Positions 3,901 through 60,344 of a stretch of 64,000 nt of DNA are shown here, piece after piece; position 1 is the first letter of the stretch; the number at the start of each line of letters is the position of its first letter. A program made the translations under genes and the position numbers. Origin of the DNA: a virus. The stretch lies in the IMG/VR virus record IMGVR_UViG_3300025381_000007; one strand, given 5' to 3'. Under the pieces are notes generated by a model. The model ran no database searches. It was given only the letters and a program-made list of their open reading frames with translations, and had not been told where the DNA came from.

Positions 3901-3928
3901 TTTATACTATACAAGGAGTAAATGTCAA
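3901..3928 (-). promoter_or_regulatory. Sigma70-like promoter
   Basis: TTGACA-16nt-TATAAA. Confidence 0.55.
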
Positions 3929-4668
3929 CTTTTGTCGTATAATTCTGAGTATTTTTCTTTTAATACTTTCTGTGCGTTTTGATAGTTGGTCACTGTTTGT
4001 ATTAATGCCGGTGTTCTGGGAATTTCTGTAACTTTTTCTACAAATGATAATGTCCCTTCTGCATCATTTGTTAATGTTGTATAAGGAATATTAAAATATT
4101 TTTCTATGCAGTCTTCTAAAAAATCATCAATATATCCACATCGTTTATTTTGTTTTTTTAATATCTTGGCTATTATAGAAGTTGGTAGATCTTTTAAACT
4201 AGATGCACTAGTTAATAGCGGTAAATCACTGTTTTTTGATTGTTCAATATTATAAAGATCGTAAACATCATTTTTTCTATCATCTGTCAATCCGGGCGTT
4301 ATAGGATCATTACCCCACATTTTTAAAAAATGATTTATTTCTATTTCATGATAATCATCAGGAGTAATGGTTATTCCTATCAATGAATAGTTTATGTACA
4401 TGTTTTTTATTGTTAAATCATCACCTGTACTAACTTGTACTATATAAGGACTCGATGTATCTTTAGGTTCGAATTCAGTAAATTTTGGATTCCATGGCGT
4501 TTCGGATTTTATAGTTGTGTGGTTATTAATATATTGAAACCAATATAAATGTGCATCGCCTTTTGGAAAATCGTATGTATTCCAATTTAAAAAAGAATGA
4601 GCAATAAGTCCGCCTAAAAAACTATGCCCGTCACCACCACGGCTGAATACAGCATATATATCTTTCAT
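3925..4668 (-). CDS. Hypothetical protein, sulfotransferase/P-loop-like N-terminus
   Basis: AVFSRGGDGHSFL; similar N-terminus to the ORF at 23195; very AT-rich. Confidence 0.5.
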   Translation of the reverse strand: MKDIYAVFSRGGDGHSFLGGLIAHSFLNWNTYDFPKGDAHLYWFQYINNHTTIKSETPWNPKFTEFEPKDTSSPYIVQVSTGDDLTIKNMYINYSLIGITITPDDYHEIEINHFLKMWGNDPITPGLTDDRKNDVYDLYNIEQSKNSDLPLLTSASSLKDLPTSIIAKILKKQNKRCGYIDDFLEDCIEKYFNIPYTTLTNDAEGTLSFVEKVTEIPRTPALIQTVTNYQNAQKVLKEKYSELYDKS

Positions 4669-5298
4669 TTAGTTGTTTAGATCAAATGCTTTAAGATTTT
4701 TTTCGATTTGATCTGGACGAACATCACGGGTCAAACTCATTGAGTAGCGGGGATCATTGGCCTGTTTCTTAGTGGCAATAACCCCACTGGCATCTTCTAT
4801 AGGATGATTTTCATCACCTAAGAATGTATCAGCAAACTTTTTACATAGTTTTGTGATGTCCTTATTACCGGTACATTCTACGGTAAATTCAAAATCTTCA
4901 TCATGTTGGCTAGGATCACTGTATCCACAATAGACTTTTTTTACAGGACTAGCATTGATGTAATCTGTACAACTACCTTGATACCGATCTGCCATAGCAC
5001 CATCGCATGGACTTAGAGTTGTTAGTATAATACTACCTTCAGGGATATCGCCATACTCTCGTTCGTAAGCATCTATAGCATTACGTTCAGCATGGCTCCA
5101 TTTGTTGCCAACTTTCATACTGGTACGAGCAACCGCACGATGATCTGGATCTAATACACAGGCCGACACCATACCAAATTTTTTGGGATCTTTCTTTTGT
5201 CCAGCAATGATTAAATTGCAAAGTTCAACAAGGTACTTATCCAAGTGTTTACGACCGTGGATTTTGTAATCGCTCTTGATAAACTCTAAGATTTTCAT
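4669..5298 (-). CDS. Zn-dependent deaminase (CDA/RibD-like fold)
   Basis: HAE motif, TLSPC and a downstream Cys. Confidence 0.75.
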   Translation of the reverse strand: MKILEFIKSDYKIHGRKHLDKYLVELCNLIIAGQKKDPKKFGMVSACVLDPDHRAVARTSMKVGNKWSHAERNAIDAYEREYGDIPEGSIILTTLSPCDGAMADRYQGSCTDYINASPVKKVYCGYSDPSQHDEDFEFTVECTGNKDITKLCKKFADTFLGDENHPIEDASGVIATKKQANDPRYSMSLTRDVRPDQIEKNLKAFDLNN

Positions 5299-5876
5299 TT
5301 CTTTTTAGCCCGGCCTGCTTTCATGTTTGCTAGCCAATGTGCCATACGGGCCTTTTCACCTGTTGAATGTTTGGCAGTATTTCTTAAACTACTAACACTT
5401 GCTTTGGTATTTACGCCACTACGTTTGGCAAGACCTTTTCGTCCGGGATTTTTTCCATCGGCAAAGTTCTCATCTGTTTTACCTGCTTTTTTTTTAGCAA
5501 TAGCAATAGCAGCCTGTTGAGCAGGATTGGCTGCTTCTTTCAATGTTTGTAATACATTGTATAGTTGTTCAACACTTTCACAATGCCATTTACGTAGTGC
5601 TTTATTGATACGGCTATTTGGATCTCTCTTGGTCGAGGCTCCTGTACGATGTTTCTTCATGCCCTTCATACGAGCACAGAAACTCTTACGACGTTTGCTG
5701 GCCTTGCTGCCTTTCTTTAACTTACTGGGTTTAGTAGTCACAGCAGTTTGTAGTTTACTACCGGGATGTTCGCGACGATAACTCGCTACGCCTTTTTTAT
5801 TAAGGCCACCGTTTTTATTTTTACCACTTGATTTTTGCCAAGCGGCTGATTCAGTAATAAATTCTTCGGCTCTCAT
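5295..5876 (-). CDS. Basic modular protein (DUF6321-like, by recall), putative internal head protein
   Basis: MRAEEFITE leader; GGLNKKG...RRKSFCARM...KALRKWHC; further modules each begin after Glu. Confidence 0.65.
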   Translation of the reverse strand: MRAEEFITESAAWQKSSGKNKNGGLNKKGVASYRREHPGSKLQTAVTTKPSKLKKGSKASKRRKSFCARMKGMKKHRTGASTKRDPNSRINKALRKWHCESVEQLYNVLQTLKEAANPAQQAAIAIAKKKAGKTDENFADGKNPGRKGLAKRSGVNTKASVSSLRNTAKHSTGEKARMAHWLANMKAGRAKKK

Positions 5877-8365
5877 TTCTTTTTCTTCTTAGGATTTTTA
5901 GCGCCGTAGCTGGCAGCAATAGCCATCTGACGTATTTTTTCTGGACTCTTGTTTTTAAACTGATGATGACCTTTTGCGTTAGGTGTTTGAGCAGCTTTGG
6001 CAAAATCATCAATATACTTTTTTACTGGATCATTGGGTTTAAGTTTTTCAGCTAACTTAGAAGATAGTGACTCTAAATAAGCATCTTGTTCTTCGCCCAT
6101 ATCGTGTTCATCGTCTACAGCATTAAACACCGCATCTAAGTAATCAGCGGCCTTAGTAACTTTACTTTGTTGCCACGGTTCCAATGTATCGCCTTGTGCT
6201 TGCATTTGTTTGACAGCATGACGTAGTTTAGATGCATGTTTGACTAGACTCTTTAGTTGGCTGCTGGTCATGCCATTGGCTTCATCATTATACCATTCTG
6301 GATTTTCGTGAACACTATCATCGTGACCAGCACCGGCCCATTTGCTAGTACCGTGTGCTGTAGCAGCCGCTCCTTGTCCCCAACCTTTGCCTACATCGCT
6401 ATGATCTTCTTTAAGACCACCAACTTTCATGGCCTGTTCTTTATTTGAACTATATCCTTGAGCAATGGCCTGTTGTCTTTGGTTAGGCCAAATATTGGCA
6501 ACATACATTTTTCCATCACGAACAATGTACCAAGATTCCTTGTCCATTTCGTCACCAGCAGGACCACCTGTACCGTATCTTGTGCTGCGGTTGTAGTCCA
6601 TTTGACGTTGTTGATCGCGCTCGTTATCGTTGGCGTAATAGCCGCCTTCGTCATCATGACGACCTTCGTTAGGTACACAGTTACGAACTTGTCCACCGTT
6701 CTTACCTTTCTTAGTACCAGCCGCATGATGTCCTGGCCAACATTTAGTAAAACCATTTGAGTCCTTAGCACCTTTCTTGATCTCATTAAGATTACCATGT
6801 GTTTGGCACATACCGCAATCTGGGCATACTGCTTCCATTGTCATCATACTTTCTTCGTGCTTTTTCTTACCGGCACAGTGAGCCTTTTGACTAAAGCCTT
6901 TTGGATGACTACAGTTGATTGAACTCTTATACTTCTGACTCCACTCTTCCGCCACACCTTGCTCTTTAGGCATAGGAATATATCCTTTGCCACTACAACG
7001 ACGACACGATTTGGTAGGGTCTAAAGTATCTTCGCCACTGCCATCGCATTGCGGGCAGGTGCGAGTGGCTTGATCTTCCGCCACACCTTGCTCGTTAATT
7101 CTTAATTGTTTCTTTGTGTAGGCGATATTACTATCAAAACTTTTTTGACCTTTTTCTTCTGTGGGTTTGGTTATATCCGAATGAACTTGTTTTCCGCCAG
7201 CATAAACTCTTACTTGATATCCCCATGGTGTCTTATGTAGTTCATGTGTGTATGGTCCTATTGTTTCAGAGCGGATAACAGATTCTTTTAGTGAGCCTTC
7301 CGCCACACCTTCCTTCATTCTGCGACCATGTTGATCTAATACTATAAGTTTGCCGCCGAATTTTTTAATATGAGCCAATGCCAAGTCTCGTGATAGGAAT
7401 GTTTTAACAAACTCATTTTTGCTATCAGGAAATACACCATACTCAGTTGGTTCAGGGGTATATGTAAGTTTACCTTTTGCTTCCGCCACACCTTCCTGTA
7501 ATCCCGGAATAGGATGTAATCCTTTGGGAATTTCTCCAGTCCAATGCTGTGATCCGTGCCTTGCTGGTAAATCTCTTATGGCATTTTCTTCCGCTAACTC
7601 ACACAATTCAGTATGATGTAAAAATATAGTGCTACCACAATCATAACAAGGATAGTTATCAAATGGGTCCTCATCGTCATCGCCACCACTCATAGCAAAT
7701 TCATTCAAGGAGCCTTCCGCCACACCTTGCTCGTCACTCTTGTTAATCAAATCGATGTTACCAAACTGACGAAGATGTTTTATTGTGTTATTAAGATGGT
7801 GGTAATAATCTGGATCGTCTTTACTGACACCATTTTGTGCTAATAATTTTTCAGCATAACGATGTGTTGGCATTTCTTTCTTCAATAGTTCCGGAGCGCC
7901 TTCCGCCACACCTTCTTCTTTTTTAACAACAAAGTTTATGTTTTTGTTTCCGGTGTTGGGATCAATGTATGTGCTTTTGAATACTTTACCGCCGTGTTCT
8001 CGAGCGTAGGCAAATGCTTCATGTTTGTTATCAAATCTATTAGTAGGCGGTTTAATCATAGGGCTTGCTTCTTCCGCCATATCTAATTCACGGGCTTTGT
8101 GTTTTACATCGCCCTGCTTTTCGGCCTTCTTCTTATCCTTGTGAGCACCGGCACCGCCCATCTTGGCGTTCTTGGCCACAAAGTTTCTTGGTTTACTAGC
8201 AGGTATTTCTTTAGGACCCATTCTGCTTTGAACAATAATACTATCTTTGCCTAATGGTTTACTAACGCTAGCAATGCCGCCAGCACTTGTTCCGCCACTT
8301 GTAGCAGATTCTAACGTATAAACGGTAGTGTCTTTAAAGTTTTTAGATTTAAATTCGTTGTTCAT
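5873..8365 (-). CDS. Modular polyprotein with six [Q/E]GVAE linkers, putative internal head protein
   Basis: 830-aa ORF; repeated GVAE linkers separate unrelated mini-domains. Confidence 0.8.
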   Translation of the reverse strand: MNNEFKSKNFKDTTVYTLESATSGGTSAGGIASVSKPLGKDSIIVQSRMGPKEIPASKPRNFVAKNAKMGGAGAHKDKKKAEKQGDVKHKARELDMAEEASPMIKPPTNRFDNKHEAFAYAREHGGKVFKSTYIDPNTGNKNINFVVKKEEGVAEGAPELLKKEMPTHRYAEKLLAQNGVSKDDPDYYHHLNNTIKHLRQFGNIDLINKSDEQGVAEGSLNEFAMSGGDDDEDPFDNYPCYDCGSTIFLHHTELCELAEENAIRDLPARHGSQHWTGEIPKGLHPIPGLQEGVAEAKGKLTYTPEPTEYGVFPDSKNEFVKTFLSRDLALAHIKKFGGKLIVLDQHGRRMKEGVAEGSLKESVIRSETIGPYTHELHKTPWGYQVRVYAGGKQVHSDITKPTEEKGQKSFDSNIAYTKKQLRINEQGVAEDQATRTCPQCDGSGEDTLDPTKSCRRCSGKGYIPMPKEQGVAEEWSQKYKSSINCSHPKGFSQKAHCAGKKKHEESMMTMEAVCPDCGMCQTHGNLNEIKKGAKDSNGFTKCWPGHHAAGTKKGKNGGQVRNCVPNEGRHDDEGGYYANDNERDQQRQMDYNRSTRYGTGGPAGDEMDKESWYIVRDGKMYVANIWPNQRQQAIAQGYSSNKEQAMKVGGLKEDHSDVGKGWGQGAAATAHGTSKWAGAGHDDSVHENPEWYNDEANGMTSSQLKSLVKHASKLRHAVKQMQAQGDTLEPWQQSKVTKAADYLDAVFNAVDDEHDMGEEQDAYLESLSSKLAEKLKPNDPVKKYIDDFAKAAQTPNAKGHHQFKNKSPEKIRQMAIAASYGAKNPKKKKK
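6946..7914 (-). repeat. Six identical interspersed 15-bp repeats (plus strand CTTCCGCCACACCTT)
   Basis: Copies at 6946, 7075, 7297, 7480, 7714 and 7900; periods 129, 222, 183, 234, 186 bp, all multiples of 3; degenerate copy at 8071. Confidence 0.95.
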
Positions 8366-8733
8366 TTCTTTCTATTCCTAGGATTCCAATCAGCTATTGG
8401 ACTAGTCTTATTTACATCTTTACTTTCTCTACTGCCACCAGGTGTTAGTTGAACTTTTGGAGTACCTACTAGATTAGCCGCGGCTTGTAGAATGTTATCT
8501 TCAACGTCAGTGTATCCAATAGTAACCATTTTCAAGCCTGTTGGACCTGCAACATCCATTTTTTGATTCGGTAATCCTGCAACAGCAACACCAAATCTAT
8601 AAGCAAGATAACCACTACTATTATCTAATTCTGGCCAGATATGACTATTAGGTAGTGCTTCAGCTACATCAGGGTGCCAACCGCTTGCACCTGAATAGTC
8701 TTTGGCTTCTTTTACAAATTCTCTTGCTCTCAT
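8362..8733 (-). CDS. Hypothetical protein, putative internal head protein
   Basis: MRAREFVKE leader; coupled to neighbouring genes. Confidence 0.65.
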   Translation of the reverse strand: MRAREFVKEAKDYSGASGWHPDVAEALPNSHIWPELDNSSGYLAYRFGVAVAGLPNQKMDVAGPTGLKMVTIGYTDVEDNILQAAANLVGTPKVQLTPGGSRESKDVNKTSPIADWNPRNRKK

Positions 8734-9179
8734 AGTCTTGCATCCTTACTTAAACTAGCACGTAGGAACCAAAGGTGTTTCTTATGTGCATCCATACGCT
8801 CTGCTAGAAAGTTGCTTAGGCCATGTTCGCCTTCGCCTTCAGCAGCATCATAGTTTTTCTTTAAGATTATCAATAACTTTTCGCTATCTATGATCAGTTC
8901 TTTAACCATGTCATCTTTACTGGGTACACGATCTTCATCTTCGATCTTAGTTAACATACTTAGGTTATGATAACTTGTGGGCATATAGGCATTTAGCTTA
9001 CGAACATTTTCAGCAAATGGATCGATTGATTCATATACTTCATTATAGATTTCTTCAAATAGTTTATGGTATTCGTAAAAGTCGCTGCCTTCTACATTCC
9101 AGTGAAAACTATGAGTTTTCACATAGAAGCTAAAAGTGCTACTAAATGCTATTCGAGTTAATTGAACTAACTTATCCAT
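8730..9179 (-). CDS. dps: Dps/ferritin-like protein
   Basis: KTHSFHWNVEGSDFYEYHKLFEEIY...DPFAE and HKKHLWFL motifs. Confidence 0.9.
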   Translation of the reverse strand: MDKLVQLTRIAFSSTFSFYVKTHSFHWNVEGSDFYEYHKLFEEIYNEVYESIDPFAENVRKLNAYMPTSYHNLSMLTKIEDEDRVPSKDDMVKELIIDSEKLLIILKKNYDAAEGEGEHGLSNFLAERMDAHKKHLWFLRASLSKDARL

Positions 9180-9181
9180 TA

Positions 9182-9463
9182 TTATTTTCCATACCATAGT
9201 TCGAACCATGCGGGAGTGCCTGGGCGAATATTATTTGCCTTCATATATTGTGCTTTGTCATTGCCACTCATTCCGGCTTTGTCTATATTTAGTTTATTTG
9301 CTTCGGCAACTTTGGCCTTGTATTCAGCCAACCTAACCGTGCTGCCCAAGCCACCCATATAACTAGCAATTTTAAGTTCGTGTATAGGATCGTTGGGCGC
9401 AAGATAACAATCATCGGGACTATCCTGAGTTATGTTTTCTTTTGTAATACGAAACTGTTTCAT
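9182..9463 (-). CDS. Hypothetical protein
   Basis: ORF in a coupled operon. Confidence 0.65.
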   Translation of the reverse strand: MKQFRITKENITQDSPDDCYLAPNDPIHELKIASYMGGLGSTVRLAEYKAKVAEANKLNIDKAGMSGNDKAQYMKANNIRPGTPAWFELWYGK

Positions 9464-10572
9464 TTTAGCTGACTCTCAATTAATCTTGCTAGGGCATCGG
9501 CCTTATCTTCAACCCAGTTCTCGCCTATGTTTTGTCCACGCCAGTTAGGTTGTGCTGTATAGTTTGCTTCACCGCTATAGCCAGGTTTGTTGACGGCATA
9601 ACTTCCCCCGTCTGGAGTTTCCTTTACACCTTGTTCGGCCCTGCGGCGGAACAACTCTTTAGATATATTTTGTGCTATATTTGTTTTATCCTGTGATTTA
9701 CTTAGATTTTGTAATACTTGGATCAATACTTTTGTTGGATATTTGGTGTAATCTGCTTGATTGATATTTTCTCCAACATTTTGATCAGTCTTTTTAGGTT
9801 CTTCTTTTTTAGGAATACTGCTGGGAGTTCTTTTTAAACTAGCATCACTCTTGGCACGTTGTTGATCCCATGCCTTGCTCAATTTAGCAGCAGCACTCAT
9901 ACGGGCTTCTGCTACTTTGCCTTTTTTAGTAGGAGTCATGGCCTTCATACGTTGTTCGGCCTTGTTCATTAAGTCTCGTACTTCATCATCACTGAGTTCG
10001 GGATTCATAGCATTACGCCAAACCGCAAACTTTTCTTCTTCACTCTTGGCAGGATCCATTAATACGGCTCGCATAGGTGTAGCACGTGGTCCTTCTTGAT
10101 CACGGCTCGGATCCTTGGTTTCTTGACGACTTATGACGTTTAATGTGTTGAAATTAAAGGGAATATTGCCAGATTTGTTAGGTTTTCCGTTGTAATTTTT
10201 AACATAGCTTAATGCCTTAACTTGATCAGCACCTACCACAACGGTGGCAGCTGTATAACCCATTTCATTTAATTTGGCTAGTACCCGAGTTAAGTCTGGC
10301 ATTTCTTCTGTAGCAGTTTGGAAAATATGTCCGCTTTGTGGAAATACTTTTTTGTAGATAGCTAGTTTTTCTTTAGGGTTGATAGGATCATCTTTACCCA
10401 CCGTACGACTAACAACAAAGTATGGATCTGCTCCCAACTCTTTGGCCTGTGTAATAACACTGCTGGCCAAGAACATGTGTCCCTTGTGTCCCATACCACG
10501 ACCCCAACCGACCACCGCAGCCTTACCTTGACCAGTTCTTGATAGATCTTCAAAAATATTTCTTAATAACAT
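9460..10572 (-). CDS. HxGH cytidylyltransferase-like nucleotidyltransferase with modular C-terminal tail
   Basis: GRGMGHKGH and VVGADQ motifs; start reassigned to MLLRNIFE. Confidence 0.75.
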   Translation of the reverse strand: MLLRNIFEDLSRTGQGKAAVVGWGRGMGHKGHMFLASSVITQAKELGADPYFVVSRTVGKDDPINPKEKLAIYKKVFPQSGHIFQTATEEMPDLTRVLAKLNEMGYTAATVVVGADQVKALSYVKNYNGKPNKSGNIPFNFNTLNVISRQETKDPSRDQEGPRATPMRAVLMDPAKSEEEKFAVWRNAMNPELSDDEVRDLMNKAEQRMKAMTPTKKGKVAEARMSAAAKLSKAWDQQRAKSDASLKRTPSSIPKKEEPKKTDQNVGENINQADYTKYPTKVLIQVLQNLSKSQDKTNIAQNISKELFRRRAEQGVKETPDGGSYAVNKPGYSGEANYTAQPNWRGQNIGENWVEDKADALARLIESQLK

Positions 10573-10573
10573 A

Positions 10574-11713
10574 TTAGTCTTTCCTCGGTGCCCAGTTGGC
10601 TTGGTCAATGGCTTTGACAAATTGACCTGGTAAATCATTTTTAAATTGTGTACCGGGGTGTGCTTGTACATAACCTTCAGGTTTAGTTTGACGAATTCCA
10701 CCATGTGTGCCTGCACTGATTAGTTGTATTAGTTTGAGTTTTTCATGGCTAATCATTTCTACAGCATGTAATACAATATCTAGTCCAGGATCATTTAATA
10801 CCTTACCTGCTTGTCCCGCAGATAAGTTAGCCTGTGCCCATTGAGCAAACTTTTGTTTAACGCCGGGAATACGAAGATTTTGATTATAGAACTTGTACAA
10901 TATATCACCAGGTTTACTTAGTCCTGGTTTGGGTGCTAGAAACCCATCGATAGCCTGTGCATTTTTTGTAATGTATTGTTCGACTTTACTAACACCTGCA
11001 GGATCTAGTGTAGGAGCCTTTTCAACATATGTAGTACCTTGAACAATAATGTCTGGTGTACTTAATGCTTCTGCATTGGGATAACGGCTTTCTTCACTGC
11101 TGCCTAATGTTTCATACCAACCTGTGGCAGCAACCATGACTTTGGCGATTTTAATACGTTGTCCTAATTTGCTACCTACCGGAATATGAAATTCAGTGAT
11201 GTTGGGTTTGAAATCGTATTCTTGACTTTGTGGATTTAATCTAGGTGGTTGATCAGGACTGAATAAAATACCGCCTTCAATGTATCCACGTTCTGGACTT
11301 GCGGCTTCAAAGTATCTCCACAAGTTGGCCATACCGCTGGCAAAATGTTCACGTTGACGTTCTTTACCAGGTTCGACTCGACCTGTGCCTAAAATAAATG
11401 CCTTGATATCTTCGGGACTATACATTACGGTTTTTACACCGTTGTCTAATTCGGTCTTACCACGTTTTAAATATTCCCAAGCATTTTTAGGTATCATACT
11501 AAACCGGCCTTGCTCGTCCTTGCCCCAATATACAACAGGACTGCCATCCCATTTTAATTCAATGCCGTGTCCTTCCTTAGTCATGCTTTGTAGACGTTCG
11601 ATGGCATGTAGGCCACCTTGACTACCGTTAGTAAACACTAGGTCTTCGATATGTTGATATTTACGACCTACAGTAGGTGCTGCTGCTTCTGTTAATAGTT
11701 CGCGGATCTTCAT
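10574..11713 (-). CDS. Ligase-like nucleotidyltransferase (DUF6267-like, by recall)
   Basis: QHIEDL, KWDGSP (KxDG motif I), PEGYV and C-terminal VKAIDQ; MKIRELLTE leader. Confidence 0.65.
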   Translation of the reverse strand: MKIRELLTEAAAPTVGRKYQHIEDLVFTNGSQGGLHAIERLQSMTKEGHGIELKWDGSPVVYWGKDEQGRFSMIPKNAWEYLKRGKTELDNGVKTVMYSPEDIKAFILGTGRVEPGKERQREHFASGMANLWRYFEAASPERGYIEGGILFSPDQPPRLNPQSQEYDFKPNITEFHIPVGSKLGQRIKIAKVMVAATGWYETLGSSEESRYPNAEALSTPDIIVQGTTYVEKAPTLDPAGVSKVEQYITKNAQAIDGFLAPKPGLSKPGDILYKFYNQNLRIPGVKQKFAQWAQANLSAGQAGKVLNDPGLDIVLHAVEMISHEKLKLIQLISAGTHGGIRQTKPEGYVQAHPGTQFKNDLPGQFVKAIDQANWAPRKD

Positions 11714-12441
11714 AGTATGTGGTCCATTAAAAATCTAAACCATTCACGACTACCTTCTTGTAGACTAACATCAGGTGCATACTTGTCTCTGATTGCTGTG
11801 TATTTTTCTGGATAAGGTTTAAGAGCATTTAGTATGGCATGTACTGAACTCATATCTTGAGCAGTGGCATTTGGACCAATAATGCGTTTGGCAATTTCGT
11901 CTTTGTTATTAGTGATTAGTTCTTTAGTAGCACGATTTACTAGACCTTTATATGGACTTATCATCATGCTTAGTTCAGGTGTGCTGCTTAGATTAGCAAG
12001 GTCGGCCCAGATAGCGTGTAATGTGCCGCCCTTCATTTTAGGATCTTGACTATAGTCGTGTGTATGTAACGGTTGTGCAGCCTTAGCATTTTCCACAGCC
12101 ATGATATCTACTTGTACTAACTTATCAGTATTACCGATTGGTATACCTACATGGATACTAACTCCAGTACGGGCAGCAAACAGTCCTTTGTTTTTAAAAT
12201 ACTGTTCTAATGCCTGACGACTTAGTTTAAGTTCTTTTGCAGGAAACGCCTTCATTAATTCTGCGGCGTCTACCAATACATCGATATCACTACTAACTTC
12301 TTTCTTACCTGCAGACCCTATTGGATATAAGTTTATTCCTGGTGGTAGGGCTTTTTCCAGATTAGCCATGACTAGTGGAAAATTTTGTTTTGTTAGTTCA
12401 ACAGCACTAGGAACTACATTGCCACCTTCGTTTAAATTCAT
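11710..12441 (-). CDS. Pol-beta superfamily nucleotidyltransferase
   Basis: GSAGKKEVSSDIDVLVD (GS..DxD) and third Asp in QVDIM; start MNLNEGG. Confidence 0.75.
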   Translation of the reverse strand: MNLNEGGNVVPSAVELTKQNFPLVMANLEKALPPGINLYPIGSAGKKEVSSDIDVLVDAAELMKAFPAKELKLSRQALEQYFKNKGLFAARTGVSIHVGIPIGNTDKLVQVDIMAVENAKAAQPLHTHDYSQDPKMKGGTLHAIWADLANLSSTPELSMMISPYKGLVNRATKELITNNKDEIAKRIIGPNATAQDMSSVHAILNALKPYPEKYTAIRDKYAPDVSLQEGSREWFRFLMDHIL

Positions 12442-12442
12442 C

Positions 12443-12817
12443 TTATACTCCAATTTGATATTTGCCGTGAACAATATCTTCTCGATAGTGATCGAATAAT
12501 CGTTCACACATGTCTTTCATTAATTCTTTGCTAAAATGATCCTTAAAACGACCAGGCATTTTATTACTTTCAAAAAACTCACGGCATCCTTTTGCAACCA
12601 TTGGCTCAAATGCTTTAACCATATCTTCTTTATCTAGAGAACCGCCTTTGTGTGATTTATGAATCTTTACTGCTAATGGATGAAAATAATCTTTATGAAG
12701 GCGGTCGTGGTCTATAATGTACCAGAATAGGTCATTCCCGATACCTTGATCATCGCGTTCTTTACGCATTTCTTTAGCGATGTCTTTGGCTTTTCCGAAG
12801 AATTCTTTTAATAACAT
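12443..12817 (-). CDS. Hypothetical protein, putative internal head protein
   Basis: MLLKEFF leader; ATAAATA upstream near 12870. Confidence 0.65.
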   Translation of the reverse strand: MLLKEFFGKAKDIAKEMRKERDDQGIGNDLFWYIIDHDRLHKDYFHPLAVKIHKSHKGGSLDKEDMVKAFEPMVAKGCREFFESNKMPGRFKDHFSKELMKDMCERLFDHYREDIVHGKYQIGV

Positions 12818-36583: not shown

Positions 36584-38968
36584 TTAACTATTCTTGAGTG
36601 CTGCTATTTCTGTTGTTAACTCTTTAATAGCTTCAATTAATACGCCTACAATATTACCGTAAGCAACACTTAACAATCCATTTTCGTTATCGATAACAAC
36701 TTCTGGTAATATTTTTTGTATTTCTTGAGCAATAACACCTGTACCGTCTTTATTATTATCCAAACGTGTGTATGTTACACCTCGCATAGACATTACTTTA
36801 TCTAACGCATTTTGTATAGTTTTTACATCTGTTTTAATACGCTCATCGGAATATGCTGTGACGTTTCCGCCGCAAGTCAAATCTCCGTTATAGGTTAATC
36901 CACTGCTACCAGTTACACCACTTCCGGTACCGTAAACGACATAACTATTAGAAATACTTAGTGTAGCACCACTGGTACCTTGCGGACCTGTGCCTCCTGT
37001 ACTGCCAGTTGATCCTGTGGTACCTTGCGGCCCAGTTGATCCTGTTGATCCGGTATATCCTTGCAGTCCGGTAGAACCATTAGAACCATTAGATCCAGCA
37101 GTTCCTTGTGGTCCAGTAGAGCCTGGATTACCTTGTGGTCCTGCACCTCCAGTAGTTCCCTGTGCACCTGTAGATCCAGTTGTACCTTGAGCGCCTGTAG
37201 CACCAGTAGTTCCTTGCGGTCCGGTAGAACCAACAAATCCTTGGGTACCAGTAGTTCCTTGCGGTCCGGTGGCACCTGTAGTACCTTGTGGTCCCGTAGC
37301 ACCTGTTGTTCCCTGAGAACCTGTGCCACCACTGCTACCAGCACTACCTTGTAGACCAGTACTACCCTGAGTACCACTGCCTCCACTGCTACCAGCACTA
37401 CCTTGTAGACCAGTACTACCCTGAGTACCACTGCCTCCACTGCTACCAGCACTACCTTGTAGACCAGTAGCACCTGTTGTTCCTTGATTACCAGAACCAT
37501 TTGCCCCTTGGAAGCCCTGTACCCCAGTTTGCCCTTGAATGCTACCTGCTTGTCCTTGAACACCTTGTATTCCTGCACCCTGTAAACCTTGAGTTCCTTG
37601 TGTTCCCTGTGTACCTTGCGTTCCGTAAACACCTTGAACTGATGTACCTTGAACACCTTGAACACCTTGGATGCCCTGAGTTCCTTGTGTACCTTGCGTT
37701 CCGTAAACACCTTGTATAGAAGGCCCTTGAGTTCCTTGGATGCCTTGAATTCCTTGGACACTACCTGCTTGTCCTTGAACACCTTGTATGGCTGGACCTT
37801 GAATACCCTGTGTTCCTTGGATGCCGGTGGTTCCTTGAACCGATATTCCTTGTAAACCTTGTGTTCCCTGAGTTCCTTGTGTGCCCTGACTACCTTGAAG
37901 TCCTTGCAAGCCCTGAGTACCTTGAATACCTTGAGCCCCGATACCGCCCGTAAATCCTTGTGTACCGTTTGATCCTTGAATACCTTGAATACCTTGAATA
38001 CCTTGAATACCTTGGATACCTTGGATACCTTGATTTCCCTGTAAACCTTGAATACCTTGATTTCCCTGTAAACCTTGAATACCTTGATTTCCCTGTAAAC
38101 CTTGAATACCTTGGCTACCAGTAGCACCTTGCGGCCCTGTAAACTGTACTCCGTTGTGATATATGTATCCACCGAGATAGATGTCACCGTCGATACCAGC
38201 ACCCCCGGCAACATATAAAGCATTACTTGCTGTAACAACCGTGTTGGCTGTACTCAATACATTAACAATCGGTGCAGAAAATACATTATTACTATAACTT
38301 ACATTAGTAGTAGCATATTCTGCTGAAAACCCTGGGAAAGTTCCCTTGGCCAATACAGGATAAAACACACTAGAATCTGTGTTTAATATTTGAGCAAGAT
38401 TTGTTTGATTAGCAAATCCTACCCCGATACTAGAAGTTGTAACCCAAGTGGCTGTATTACCCTGGCTTAATAGGATAGTACCAGTTGAACCGATGGGAAT
38501 AAATGCAGTGGTATTAGGCGCACTTTGAATAAGAATACTACCGGTATTACCGCCTATTACATTTTGTACTGTATTTGGAGTAACACCCTGTAGTCCTTGA
38601 AGTCCTTGAAGTCCTTGATTACCTTGTAGTCCTTGAATGCCTTGTAAACCTTGGGTCCCTTGAGTTCCCTGCAGGCCCTGTATCCCTTGAATACCTTGAA
38701 TACCTTGATTTCCCTGTAACCCTTGAATGCCTTGTATGCCCTGTAAACCTTGAGTTCCCTGAAATCCCTGTAAACCTTGAGTTCCCTGGGTGCCTTGAGC
38801 ACCAGTCGGTCCTTGCGGCAGTGGCGTTTGATTAAGTAGTTCTAAAACTTGAGGAGTTGTAATAAGGCCATCCACCCCACCAACTTGGACAATGAACTCA
38901 GTCGTACCGACTGTTGGGCTAGTAATCACTGGCAAAGAAGTAAGATTTGGTCTATTGGTAATGGTCAT
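36584..38968 (-). CDS. Collagen-like fibre with C-terminal S74 intramolecular chaperone
   Basis: Long Gly-X-Y runs dominated by G-x-Q; YSDERIKT...[15 protein letters not shown]...[17 protein letters not shown]. Confidence 0.88.
36975..38140 (-). repeat. Collagen-coding 9/27/45-bp tandem repeats
   Basis: (ACCTTGAAT)n near 37975-38010; 27-bp units near 38030-38110; 45-bp units near 37330-37470. Confidence 0.85.
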
Positions 38969-47648: not shown

Positions 47649-48209
47649 TTATTCAAACCCAAAACCTGGAATATTTTTTCTAATCCTAGTTCTTAATGTT
47701 TCTGTCGACATTCCAAGTGCTATTGCAGCATCATTCATACAAGGAAATACTCCAATCGGAGTTTTTACTTTTTTGGCTCTAACACTGTTTCCGCCTTTTG
47801 GTTGTTTTGATTTTATCTCTTTTAATTTTAATATAGTTTCGGGTTTATGTTTTTTACCATAAAAAGAAGTCTGGTTACCAGTCTTTCCCCAATTTGGATT
47901 TTTTTCTCCTTTGAGTCCAGGACTACCGGGTGCTCGACCATCTCTTCCATTTTCTGGTCTTAAATTTGCCCAGTCTTTAGATTCGACAATATTATTTTTT
48001 TTAGAAAAATCCAAAGCAAATTTTTCGCATTCGTCTATATTAGTAAATTCCCATACTTCTAATGTATCAATATCTTTTCCGTGAACTTTTAAATGCCGTC
48101 TCCAATGTTTTCCAGAACCTAAATACACATAAGGATCTTTAGTAGCAGTCATTCCGAAATATTTTAATTTTGTTATTTTATGTTGTTTTACATATAGATA
48201 AATCTTCAT
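47649..48209 (-). mobile_element. Free-standing GIY-YIG-type homing endonuclease with NUMOD repeats
   Basis: IYLYVKQH...LKYFG...YLGSG; GEKNPNWGK and FYGKKH; flanked by a duplicated target segment. Confidence 0.8.
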
Positions 48210-48270
48210 AGGACTCTCCCTATGATTATTTATCCTAATTAGCGGGTTGATGCTCGGAGGCCGCTTGAAC

Positions 48271-48444
48271 TTATTTAAGTTCCTTGATATCTTGTTTGAT
48301 TTTTTTAAGTTCGACGGATATTTCATCAATCATATCCAACTCTTTACGACGGCTACAAACAGTTTGTACCAATGTATACGCAAATAAACTCCAACCTAAT
48401 AAACCACCTGTAAATAAAAATGCCAATATAAAGTATTGTGCCAT
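48271..48444 (-). CDS. Small membrane protein
   Basis: Manual translation MAQYFILAFLFTGG...IKELK; GGGAG SD. Confidence 0.55.
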   Translation of the reverse strand: MAQYFILAFLFTGGLLGWSLFAYTLVQTVCSRRKELDMIDEISVELKKIKQDIKELK

Positions 48445-59091: not shown

Positions 59092-59575
59092 TCTCATCAG
59101 TAACTTGACCCTCGGGAACATATTTCATTTTTTCCATATATTGATCGTTCTCATCTAACTCGTGAGAAGCAAATCCCCCTGAGCCGCTACAATACCAATC
59201 AATGTAATCACCTTTTTCACGCATATCGGCAATGATGCCGCCGGCACTACGCCAAGAGCATGACCAACGCTGATCCTTTAGTATAGGCATAACATCCAAC
59301 TTTTGGAACTGCATATTACACATGGCCGCATACAGGTTTTGAGCATAACTATCCGACGCCTTGACCTTATCACAGATCCATTTAGTACTACGAAGATCAT
59401 ACTCCAAATTGTCTTTTTGCCACTCAGGATTTTTAAGATTAGCCTCATCCTGTTCTCGCCAAGTTTTGAACATCTCAAGATAATCTTCGCTAGGTTCTTG
59501 ACCTGTTTCTTTACATCGTCTGAGATAGCCTTCCTTTTGAAAGGTGTTACGTTCGGGGCTTTTATTAACGGTCAT
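59033..59575 (-). CDS. Hypothetical phage protein
   Basis: YAQNLYAAMCN...SWRSAGGIIADM...DWYCSG. Confidence 0.7.
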   Translation of the reverse strand: MTVNKSPERNTFQKEGYLRRCKETGQEPSEDYLEMFKTWREQDEANLKNPEWQKDNLEYDLRSTKWICDKVKASDSYAQNLYAAMCNMQFQKLDVMPILKDQRWSCSWRSAGGIIADMREKGDYIDWYCSGSGGFASHELDENDQYMEKMKYVPEGQVTDEIKEDLKKLGWISVEWEDSE

Positions 59576-59578
59576 AAA

Positions 59579-59623
59579 TCAAGTCCAAAGTGAATCACGG
59601 ATTTTGATAAGACGAATCATCAT
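59579..59623 (-). pseudogene. Orphaned original 3' end of the 60322-61149 gene
   Basis: Encodes MMIRLIKIRDSLWT*, versus the current C-terminus MMIRLIRVRHGLWT*. Confidence 0.8.
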
Positions 59624-59645
59624 TCTAAATTGTATAAATAACACT

Positions 59646-60344
59646 ATGAATACCTTTATTGAAAAATTAAAAACAACTAATAACAAATATTATACTTGGT
59701 ACAGCAACATCTGTCAACGTGCTTTATTAAGAAATTTACCAACTTTTGTATATACCGAAAAACATCATATATTACCAAAATCTTTATATCCGGAGTATTC
59801 TAAAAATAAAGATAATTTGGTAAAACTTACAGCCCGAGAACACTTCATATGTCATTGGTTATTAACTAAAATTATAAACGATCCAAAAACAATTTATGCT
59901 TTTCAAATGATGATTCCTAATAAAACATCTAACCGCTATCGTCTAAAATCTTCTACGGTTTATGAAAATCTAAAAAAACAATTTTCTAAAAATAATAAAG
60001 GATCTGTTGGAAAAACTTGGTATACTAACGGTACTGATAATAAATTTACATTAACTGCTCCGTCGGGGTTTGTTCCAGGCAGAACTTTCAGTGTAGATCA
60101 CAAAAATAAATTAAAAGGTATTCCAAAAACACAAGAACAAAAACAAAAACAATCGACTGTCATGACCGGAAAACCTGGACTTACTGGAGATGCTAATCCT
60201 GCAACACGCCAGGAAGTGAGAGAAAAAATTAGCAAATCTCGCACAGGAACTACTGCATCTGATGAAACAAAAACTAAAATGAGAAATTCTAAATTAGGTA
60301 AAAAACGAGGACCTTATAAAGTTAAGTCCAAAGACCGTGTCTAA
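59646..60344 (+). mobile_element. Free-standing HNH homing endonuclease with NUMOD3-like repeats
   Basis: EKHHILPKS...NLVKLTAREHFICHWLL; WYTNG; TATAAATA at 59633-59640. Confidence 0.85.

Follow-up and report, generated by a model that had tools for sequence, protein, structure and literature searches.

Why would a phage gene carry the same 15 bases six times, always in frame, between segments that are unrelated to each other? The question is raised by an open reading frame (ORF) of 830 codons on the minus strand, at positions 5873-8365 of a 64,000-nucleotide stretch of DNA (hereafter the window) from the 68-kb virus record IMGVR_UViG_3300025381_000007. The record encodes a family B polymerase, and its source is a large T4-related freshwater phage; near-identical DNA (at least half of the sampled words) is present in 22 runs labelled freshwater metagenome, one of which may be the sample it came from, and the RNA runs X23 and X24 contain small shares of the window DNA only. 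We found that the repeat is conserved at the DNA level, and that the modules between its copies are gained, lost and reordered between related phages with breakpoints at the repeat.

The repeat, AAGGTGTGGCGGAAG, occurs in six exact copies on the coding (minus) strand, with copy-to-copy spacings of 129, 222, 183, 234, 186 and 171 bp, and a further copy with three mismatches starts at 8071 on the same strand (Table 1). When up to three mismatches are allowed the window holds nine matches, against a mean of 0.97 and a maximum of five in shuffled sequence; the two outside the array (24839 and 60621) do not exceed chance. All copies of the array are in frame within the ORF, and they encode xGVAE (exact copies) or DMAE (degenerate copy). 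The preliminary description of this array was reproduced in copy number, positions, spacing and frame, and the double CxxCxGxG and CxxC-His modules that it reported are both present (C6 and C3 in Table 1). Its remark that VAE is coded differently elsewhere also held, as GTG GCG is used at none of the 11 further VAE tripeptides that reading frames of the contig encode, both sites cited there included. No additional copy was found in the 68-kb contig beyond the array. A decayed copy with four mismatches (QGVKE) lies at 9618-9632 of the window, inside a gene for 418 residues (9460-10716).

A scan of the collection with the exact repeat returned 137 loci, with an estimated total of about 1700 stored viral stretches, and 176 of 180 distinct exact matches sit in the xGVAE frame. 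Since such a scan itself selects for the DNA, three tests free of that selection were made. In a set selected by protein, the first 96 residues served as query and drew 80 loci (about half of them match residues 44-96 only, and the set is not one of strict orthologues), giving 63 distinct ORFs, 30 of them with a scored GVAE. At the 50 GVAE sites with unique flanks the codons were GGT in 49, GTG in 47 and GCG in 46, against background shares in the same genes of 45%, 12% and 6%, and an identical 12-mer was found at 34 of the 50, compared with 0.29% expected. The Glu wobble is unconstrained, with A at 40 of 50 sites, matching the background. A scan of the collection that left all wobble bases unspecified gave GGT GTG GCG in 94 of 126 contexts, and many of the other 32 are single-base variants or high-GC contexts that are apparently unrelated. 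Finally, in homologous modules ending in GVAE, identity at the four-fold sites of the module declines from 0.82 through 0.50 and 0.41 to 0.37, tracking protein identity down to less than 60%, versus 0.94, 0.86, 0.97 and 1.00 for the wobbles of the linker; where the adjoining module is saturated, linker wobbles are identical in 96 of 96 comparisons versus 68 of 184 module sites (366 loci fetched without the exact pattern, some of them from genomes first found by it, and with pairs that are non-independent). The Glu codon is followed by G at 344 of 363 GVAE sites versus 626 of 1572 other hydrophobic-X-Glu sites, and the repeat consensus reaches weakly to about 20 bases. The linker is thus conserved as DNA beyond the need of its peptide, as had been proposed; this conservation extends family-wide in related phages, where normal synonymous variation at the linker is not seen. 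Given the codon and wobble-decay tests, neither recent copying nor codon bias can account for the identity of the linkers.

The modules, numbered C1 to C6 in coding order, differ in number and order between related loci. The window reads C1-C2-C3-C4-C5-C6, locus L145 C1-C3-x-C4-C5-C2'-y and locus L140 x-C4-C5-C2-C3-C4, and L138 has no array. The module after the degenerate first site differs in L144, L171 (where C5 follows it immediately) and L157 (where the site reads DVAE), and filled/empty allele pairs also occur at this site. Thirteen DNA blocks are shared with the array. Contig ends aside, they have 23 ends, of which 15, judged by eye, are no more than 7 nt away from the edge of a repeat, including 10 that coincide with it exactly. 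Among the flanks that recur in 447 junction contexts, 49 of 51 on the left and 36 of 40 on the right are joined at the repeat to more than one partner, compared with 8/46 to 18/41 (left) and 6/31 to 13/43 (right) at control positions 60-90 nt away, one control offset having given no data. Ten filled/empty allele pairs (13 rows less two self-matches of duplicated contig ends and one second path of the same pair) are all in frame, and eight of them have one repeat-type copy at the join, which is near-exact in five, DMAE-type in two and codon-shifted in one. For C2, the 17 loci whose 5' end is complete show nine different N-termini in front of it (by eye), and copies of at least 85% identity stand in 16 neighbour contexts. 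The C1-C3 join without C2 is present in four of eight lake assemblies, and 22 of 24 loose ends among those listed fall within 10 nt of a repeat, such zones making up about one-fifth of the stretch; the lake contigs mix strains and phages, and these are coexisting arrangements, not events. Altogether, 242 segments between consecutive repeats fall into 184 families, and repeat periods in relatives range from 32 to 292 codons. C6, too short for a collection scan, was looked for only among the loci already fetched, and cultured relatives gave weak partial matches only, in cyanophages (7 records). These findings agree with the earlier suggestion that cassettes vary in number and order at the repeat and recur in other genes, and neither the fixed order, the normal linker variation nor the breakpoints elsewhere that had been named as arguing against it were observed. 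At the 3' ends of L140 and L150 a module that the gene already contains appears once more, which may be a tandem duplication, a circle or an assembly path.

C2 is also present in an unrelated phage. In the 30.6-kb record L245 it forms a 192-base in-frame insert in a small gene, with 180 of 184 aligned bases identical and one 9-base gap; the local G+C content is 48.7% versus 34.6% for C2, and the site is empty and repeat-free in 14 close relatives of L245. The beginning of the insert falls within the repeat, and its end lies 10 bases beyond the second copy, in sequence that is donor-derived according to the metagenome contig L504. To judge from this single contig, the event is the capture of a linear piece and not a clean repeat-to-repeat integration. 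In L504 itself, C2 lies together with its two repeats and donor flanks in a short gene, the ends of which look unlike those of giant-phage genes, possibly a second capture. L245 (2375-2755) and L275-L369 represent a small-phage family whose genes have their own repeated K-x-x-GG modules and also share a module with giant phages, and L320 has a GMAEG join in that same small gene.

We consider it moderately probable that the repeat combines a connector, a point of short-homology crossover and a prohead-protease site, and that the genes built with it are shuffled head-cargo polyproteins. The 15-20 bases would connect small coding modules in frame and, being common to the genes and genomes of a family of T4-related freshwater phages, mark where modules enter, leave or change order among them, probably as a crossover point for the general recombination system of the phage. 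A crossover between any two copies, in the same gene, in another gene or in a co-infecting phage, would delete, insert or permute modules in frame. Copies that drift from the common sequence would leave the exchange and decay to joins of the GMAE, GVEE or DMAE type, and the repeat could stay constant under general recombination because drifted copies stop exchanging, a network effect that we infer. At the protein level, the prediction is that the prohead protease cleaves xGVAE behind its Glu. The polyprotein would thereby carry many small proteins into the head, and these, once packaged, cleaved and injected, would act in host takeover or counter-defence, in the manner of the T4 internal proteins. 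That the cassette system is real is strongly supported, and its shuffling is seen in the arrangements above; the enzyme, the cleavage, the packaging and the cargo functions are what we infer.

The recombination machinery was sought in five large relatives that hold the repeat (261-343 kb, with 2-9 clustered copies each, all possibly incomplete). A tyrosine recombinase (PF00589) was found in none of them (control 14/14; the scan covered the relatives and not the window contig), a reverse transcriptase (PF00078) likewise in none, and a serine recombinase (PF00239) in none over the cut-off, with one weak 71-residue frame. In relative G003 there was no integrase, resolvase or reverse transcriptase among 274 scanned ORFs of the 359 called, one ORF of about 4200 residues and 84 ORFs of 90-139 residues being outside this set. 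Full-length RecA/UvsX is encoded in four of the five relatives, and G003 additionally encodes SMC-like and phosphoesterase proteins reminiscent of gp46/47, together with a DEAD-type helicase. In folding comparisons, 80 junctions did not surpass flank-swapped controls for either strand, so that no junction hairpin was detected. No circles were seen either, as judged from backward joints in the eight lake assemblies, whose contigs drop rare forms, and from head-to-tail C2 among 15 metagenome matches (joints with only 20-25 bases on one side are the repeat itself and were not counted). The main text of a T4 study describes amplification and deletion of DNA at microhomologies of 6-10 bp (PMC9391042), and an identity of 15-20 bases would therefore be sufficient in principle. 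Taken together, these observations favour general recombination. The integron- or CRISPR-like machine of the preliminary description, with a co-occurring recombinase or reverse transcriptase and excised circles, thus found no support in the relatives, assemblies and matches searched. G003 (L218-L235, labelled 99% complete) gave no portal, capsid or S77 protease match and is therefore probably incomplete; it is rich in radical-SAM, sugar-modifying and queuosine-pathway-like genes.

The predicted cut site can be compared with known head proteases. According to the main texts of the respective papers, T4 gp21 cleaves after L/I-X-E (PMC9026906), T4 internal proteins bear a 10-residue targeting leader (PMC9026906, PMC3012670), and giant-phage proteases likewise cleave after Glu motifs (PMC5694885). 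An S77 protease is encoded in two of the five relatives (G001 and G005), in G001 within a portal-core-protease-scaffold-gp23 module, the capsid protein of which matches T4 gp23 (E 9e-40) and has several hydrophobic-X-Glu sites in its leader. The module after the last repeat of the window has a Glu in front of it in all 23 distinct homologues, this Glu belonging to GVAE in six, to a short N-terminal leader resembling a capsid targeting sequence (CTS) in seven and to another Glu motif in ten. The same module can thus stand behind GVAE or behind a leader Glu, which indicates that the linker occupies the place of the leader cut site. Modules also start behind Glu in 20 of 20 in-register cases (by eye; 26 rows, from which six off-register ones were dropped). 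Outside GVAE, hydrophobic-X-Glu is found 1668 times in repeat-bearing genes versus 1236 ± 29 after shuffling (control genes, 1224 versus 1053), and a CTS-like pattern of our own fits 39 of 111 repeat-bearing genes versus 16 of 254 control genes, as well as the neighbours of the window gene. The proposal that the linker doubles as a Glu protease-cleavage site is supported indirectly, by the Glu before the modules and the S77 protease in relatives, and cleavage itself stands as a prediction.

The modules themselves mostly lack recognisable relatives. The model of C5 is a compact domain with a predicted local distance difference test score (pLDDT) of 90, from a seven-sequence alignment, and that of C2 is helical (pLDDT 76). 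C5 resembles many stand-alone phage proteins of 60-75 residues, without a significant match: fold searches gave none at E ≤ 0.001 (an AcrF1 row at E 0.34 is not evidence), and atlas matches for C5 and C2, at 0.79-0.80, are at chance level. Pfam matched 12 of 148 segments (the longest of the 184 families), three of them over the cut-off, and PHROGs gave no match for C1-C5.

Several observations weigh against the combined role proposed for the repeat. Mixed-population assembly can create some module orders, as L140 and L150 end in a repeated module. Many module joins consist of the Glu codon only, and the empty site is repeat-free in two of the ten filled/empty pairs, so the repeat is not needed for fusion. 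The N-terminal family of the window gene fits the CTS-like pattern in 0 of 20 cases, and Val at P3 falls outside the L/I-X-E motif of T4. Repeat variants are not clustered within genes (p 0.28-0.60), which gives no hint that they are homogenised locally. Genes for the protease and for recombination were found in relatives only and not in the 68-kb fragment, and no recombination event, circle, cleavage or packaging was seen. Moreover, plain homology does not obviously explain how so short a repeat stays constant across about 1700 stretches, or why the Glu wobble is free beside fixed neighbours.

These last points bear on the idea that the exchange is driven by a dedicated enzyme of a kind not yet recognised, a sequence-specific recombinase or nicking nuclease with the repeat as its target, in an integron-like manner inside genes and with the Glu cut site riding on the recognition site. 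Such an enzyme would fit the contrast between the Glu wobble, which is free, and those of Gly, Val and Ala, which are fixed like the G that follows the Glu codon, as well as the invariance of the repeat across saturated module divergence. It would also fit the degenerate left junctions (n = 11), in which the 3' half of the repeat is retained (matches of 0.82-1.0, versus 0.45-0.91 for the 5' half), and the insert in the repeat-free gene of L245, which starts inside the repeat. The position-specific tolerance and the retained 3' half keep this explanation in contention, but with the recombinase and reverse transcriptase searches negative or under cut-off, no hairpin or circle, and an L245 insert that is one event and whose far end, 10 nt past the repeat, fits linear capture, we hold it to be unlikely. 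A bolder form is a programmed intragenic cassette system of a widespread family of giant freshwater phages, in which such an enzyme would cut or recombine at a 15-20-base site that doubles as the head-protease cut code, and a community pool of hundreds of mini-proteins could be inserted in frame into virion cargo genes in any order; it seems to us a doubtful reading.

Shuffling at the repeat might also yield an uncut multidomain protein in which GVAE is only a spacer. The cleavage is predicted from sequence, the window gene has no clear CTS-like start, and the N4 virion RNA polymerase is an uncut polyvalent phage protein, according to the main text of PMC5512222. A spacer, however, does not account for modules that start after Glu whatever precedes it, or for the excess of hydrophobic-X-Glu outside GVAE, and we regard this possibility as quite improbable. 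We consider it very improbable that the repeat persists on account of some other role in DNA or RNA, such as protein binding, a two-tier G-quadruplex or translational pausing, with shuffling as a by-product: the strong constraint on the DNA and the three to four GG pairs on the coding strand are compatible with it, but the fourth GG exists only where Gly follows (218 of 363 sites), the 2-9 copies per genome are clustered in cargo-type genes, and the exact matches keep almost without exception to one reading frame. A Chi-like genome-wide signal was rejected on the same few clustered copies. We give next to no credence to a requirement for the peptide alone, with DNA identity due to codon bias or recent copying; modules are indeed also joined through other Glu motifs, but the rare GTG and GCG codons fill nearly all linker sites, and the unchanged linker wobbles beside saturated modules already contradict it.

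Integrons combine the IntI tyrosine recombinase with attC sites that fold as single-strand hairpins and with circular cassette intermediates. The arrays described here resemble them in having unrelated cassettes, a large shared pool, one site per cassette and a degenerate first site, and differ in the short direct repeats within one open frame, with no integrase found in the relatives and no attC-like hairpin. CRISPR arrays have non-coding repeats and spacers of near-constant short length; an array of this kind was rejected, as the periods here are 129-234 bp, vary widely in relatives, and all lie in an open frame. Retroelement-driven diversification relies on a reverse transcriptase, and was likewise rejected, PF00078 having been found in none of the five possibly incomplete relatives.

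The internal-protein locus of T-even phages is variable. With T4 IPI-III and Alt, as described in the main texts of PMC9026906, PMC3012670 and PMC5694885, our system shares a T4-type head module with an S77 protease (in relatives), hydrophobic-X-Glu sites, short Glu-ending leaders (on neighbouring genes) and highly variable small cargo. The T4 internal proteins are separate small genes with a leader each, whereas here one gene links many cargo modules and the site predicted to be cut doubles as a conserved DNA repeat, with packaging and cleavage as predictions. The PeSL cassettes of the T4-type phages RB49 and phi1 are intergenic promoter-terminator elements of about 100 bp for which mini-circles were detected, according to the main text of PMC2839356. 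As in PeSL, a repeated motif flanks variable ORFans, the empty allele keeps one copy (here in the eight pairs noted above), and repeat-repeat recombination is proposed; unlike PeSL, the repeat has 15-20 coding bases, is intragenic and builds fusion proteins, with no circle or hairpin seen. Membership in PeSL was rejected on these grounds, the information being confined to about 20 coding bases without a stem-loop. By analogy, the system would work like PeSL shuffling placed inside a reading frame and combined with T4 internal-protein processing. Polyvalent proteins and polymorphic-toxin cassettes (PMC5512222, main text) are similarly multidomain, with variable domains, likely virion-borne, and cassette recombination has been suggested for some of them. 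They have recognisable enzymatic domains, whereas 136 of 148 segments here are without a Pfam match, and that main text contains neither 'linker' nor 'shuffl'. Assignment to this class was rejected, as no MPTase, MuF or ART Pfam match was found in the window protein or in the 148 segments (weak GNAT matches in three). No such linker was met with in the main text of a jumbo-phage survey (PMC7824862), a term search of PMC12373910 yielded nothing of relevance, and we found no description of a coding cassette linker in the literature covered, which comprised main texts without supplements and few subscription papers.

If the proposed combination is correct, one short sequence would solve both frame-safe swapping and the cutting of the protein into separately working pieces. 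The repeat gives exact borders for many small, predicted virion-delivered proteins, 184 segment families in a small sample and nearly all without a known family, which makes the modules candidates for counter-defence and host-takeover screens. It also opens to experiment the renewal of injected cargo in large lytic phages, and the question whether a shared connector can be kept unchanged across a phage family by general recombination alone.

Table 1 Layout of the cassette gene and of its neighbours in the window
Feature	Position	Strand	Basis
830-residue cassette polyprotein gene	5873-8365	-	ORF and relatives
Constant N-terminal region of the gene family, possible head-targeting leader	8086-8365	-	Relatives; weak DUF7230 and phrog_1359 matches
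Degenerate repeat (DMAE), array entry point	8071-8085	-	Keeps the 3' nine bases of the repeat
Module C1, 53 residues	7913-8071	-	Four further versions beside other neighbours, of which one lies in another host gene (L011)
Exact repeat	7900-7914	-	Pattern scan
Module C2, 58 residues, predicted helical, most mobile module	7727-7900	-	21 loci, contexts as in text
Exact repeat	7714-7728	-	Pattern scan
Module C3, 74 residues, CxxC-His, possible metal site	7493-7714	-	Sequence and homologous loci
Exact repeat	7480-7494	-	Pattern scan
Module C4, 57 residues	7310-7480	-	Block common to L048, L164, L140 and L165 begins exactly at the repeat
Exact repeat	7297-7311	-	Pattern scan
Module C5, 70 residues, predicted four-strand sheet and helix, self-contained domain	7088-7297	-	10 loci; model
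Exact repeat	7075-7089	-	Pattern scan
Module C6, 39 residues, double CxxCxGxG, zinc-finger-like	6959-7075	-	Sequence; weak PHROG matches
Exact repeat, last in array	6946-6960	-	Pattern scan
C-terminal block, further modules at other Glu joins	5873-6946	-	First module behind Glu in 23/23 homologues
Neighbour gene, CTS-like leader (ends ITE) and DUF6321 module	5295-5876	-	Sequence, domain match
Neighbour gene, CTS-like leader (ends VKE)	8362-8733	-	Sequence
Neighbour gene, CTS-like leader (ends LTE), DUF6267	10574-11713	-	Sequence, domain match

The cassette gene lies in a run of tightly packed minus-strand genes (3925-12817), several of them with short Glu-ending leaders, which is possibly a head-cargo operon and includes deaminase-like, ferritin/Dps-like and cytidyltransferase-like genes. 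Upstream of 12817 there is an AT-rich motif that we take to be late-promoter-like. Elsewhere in the window, a stop-free alternative frame of 426 codons (36958-38238) overlies the GxQ collagen-like repeats of the gene at 36584-38968 and is probably a by-product of these repeats, and two ORFs, at 47649-48329 and 59544-60344, resemble homing-endonuclease genes by eye.

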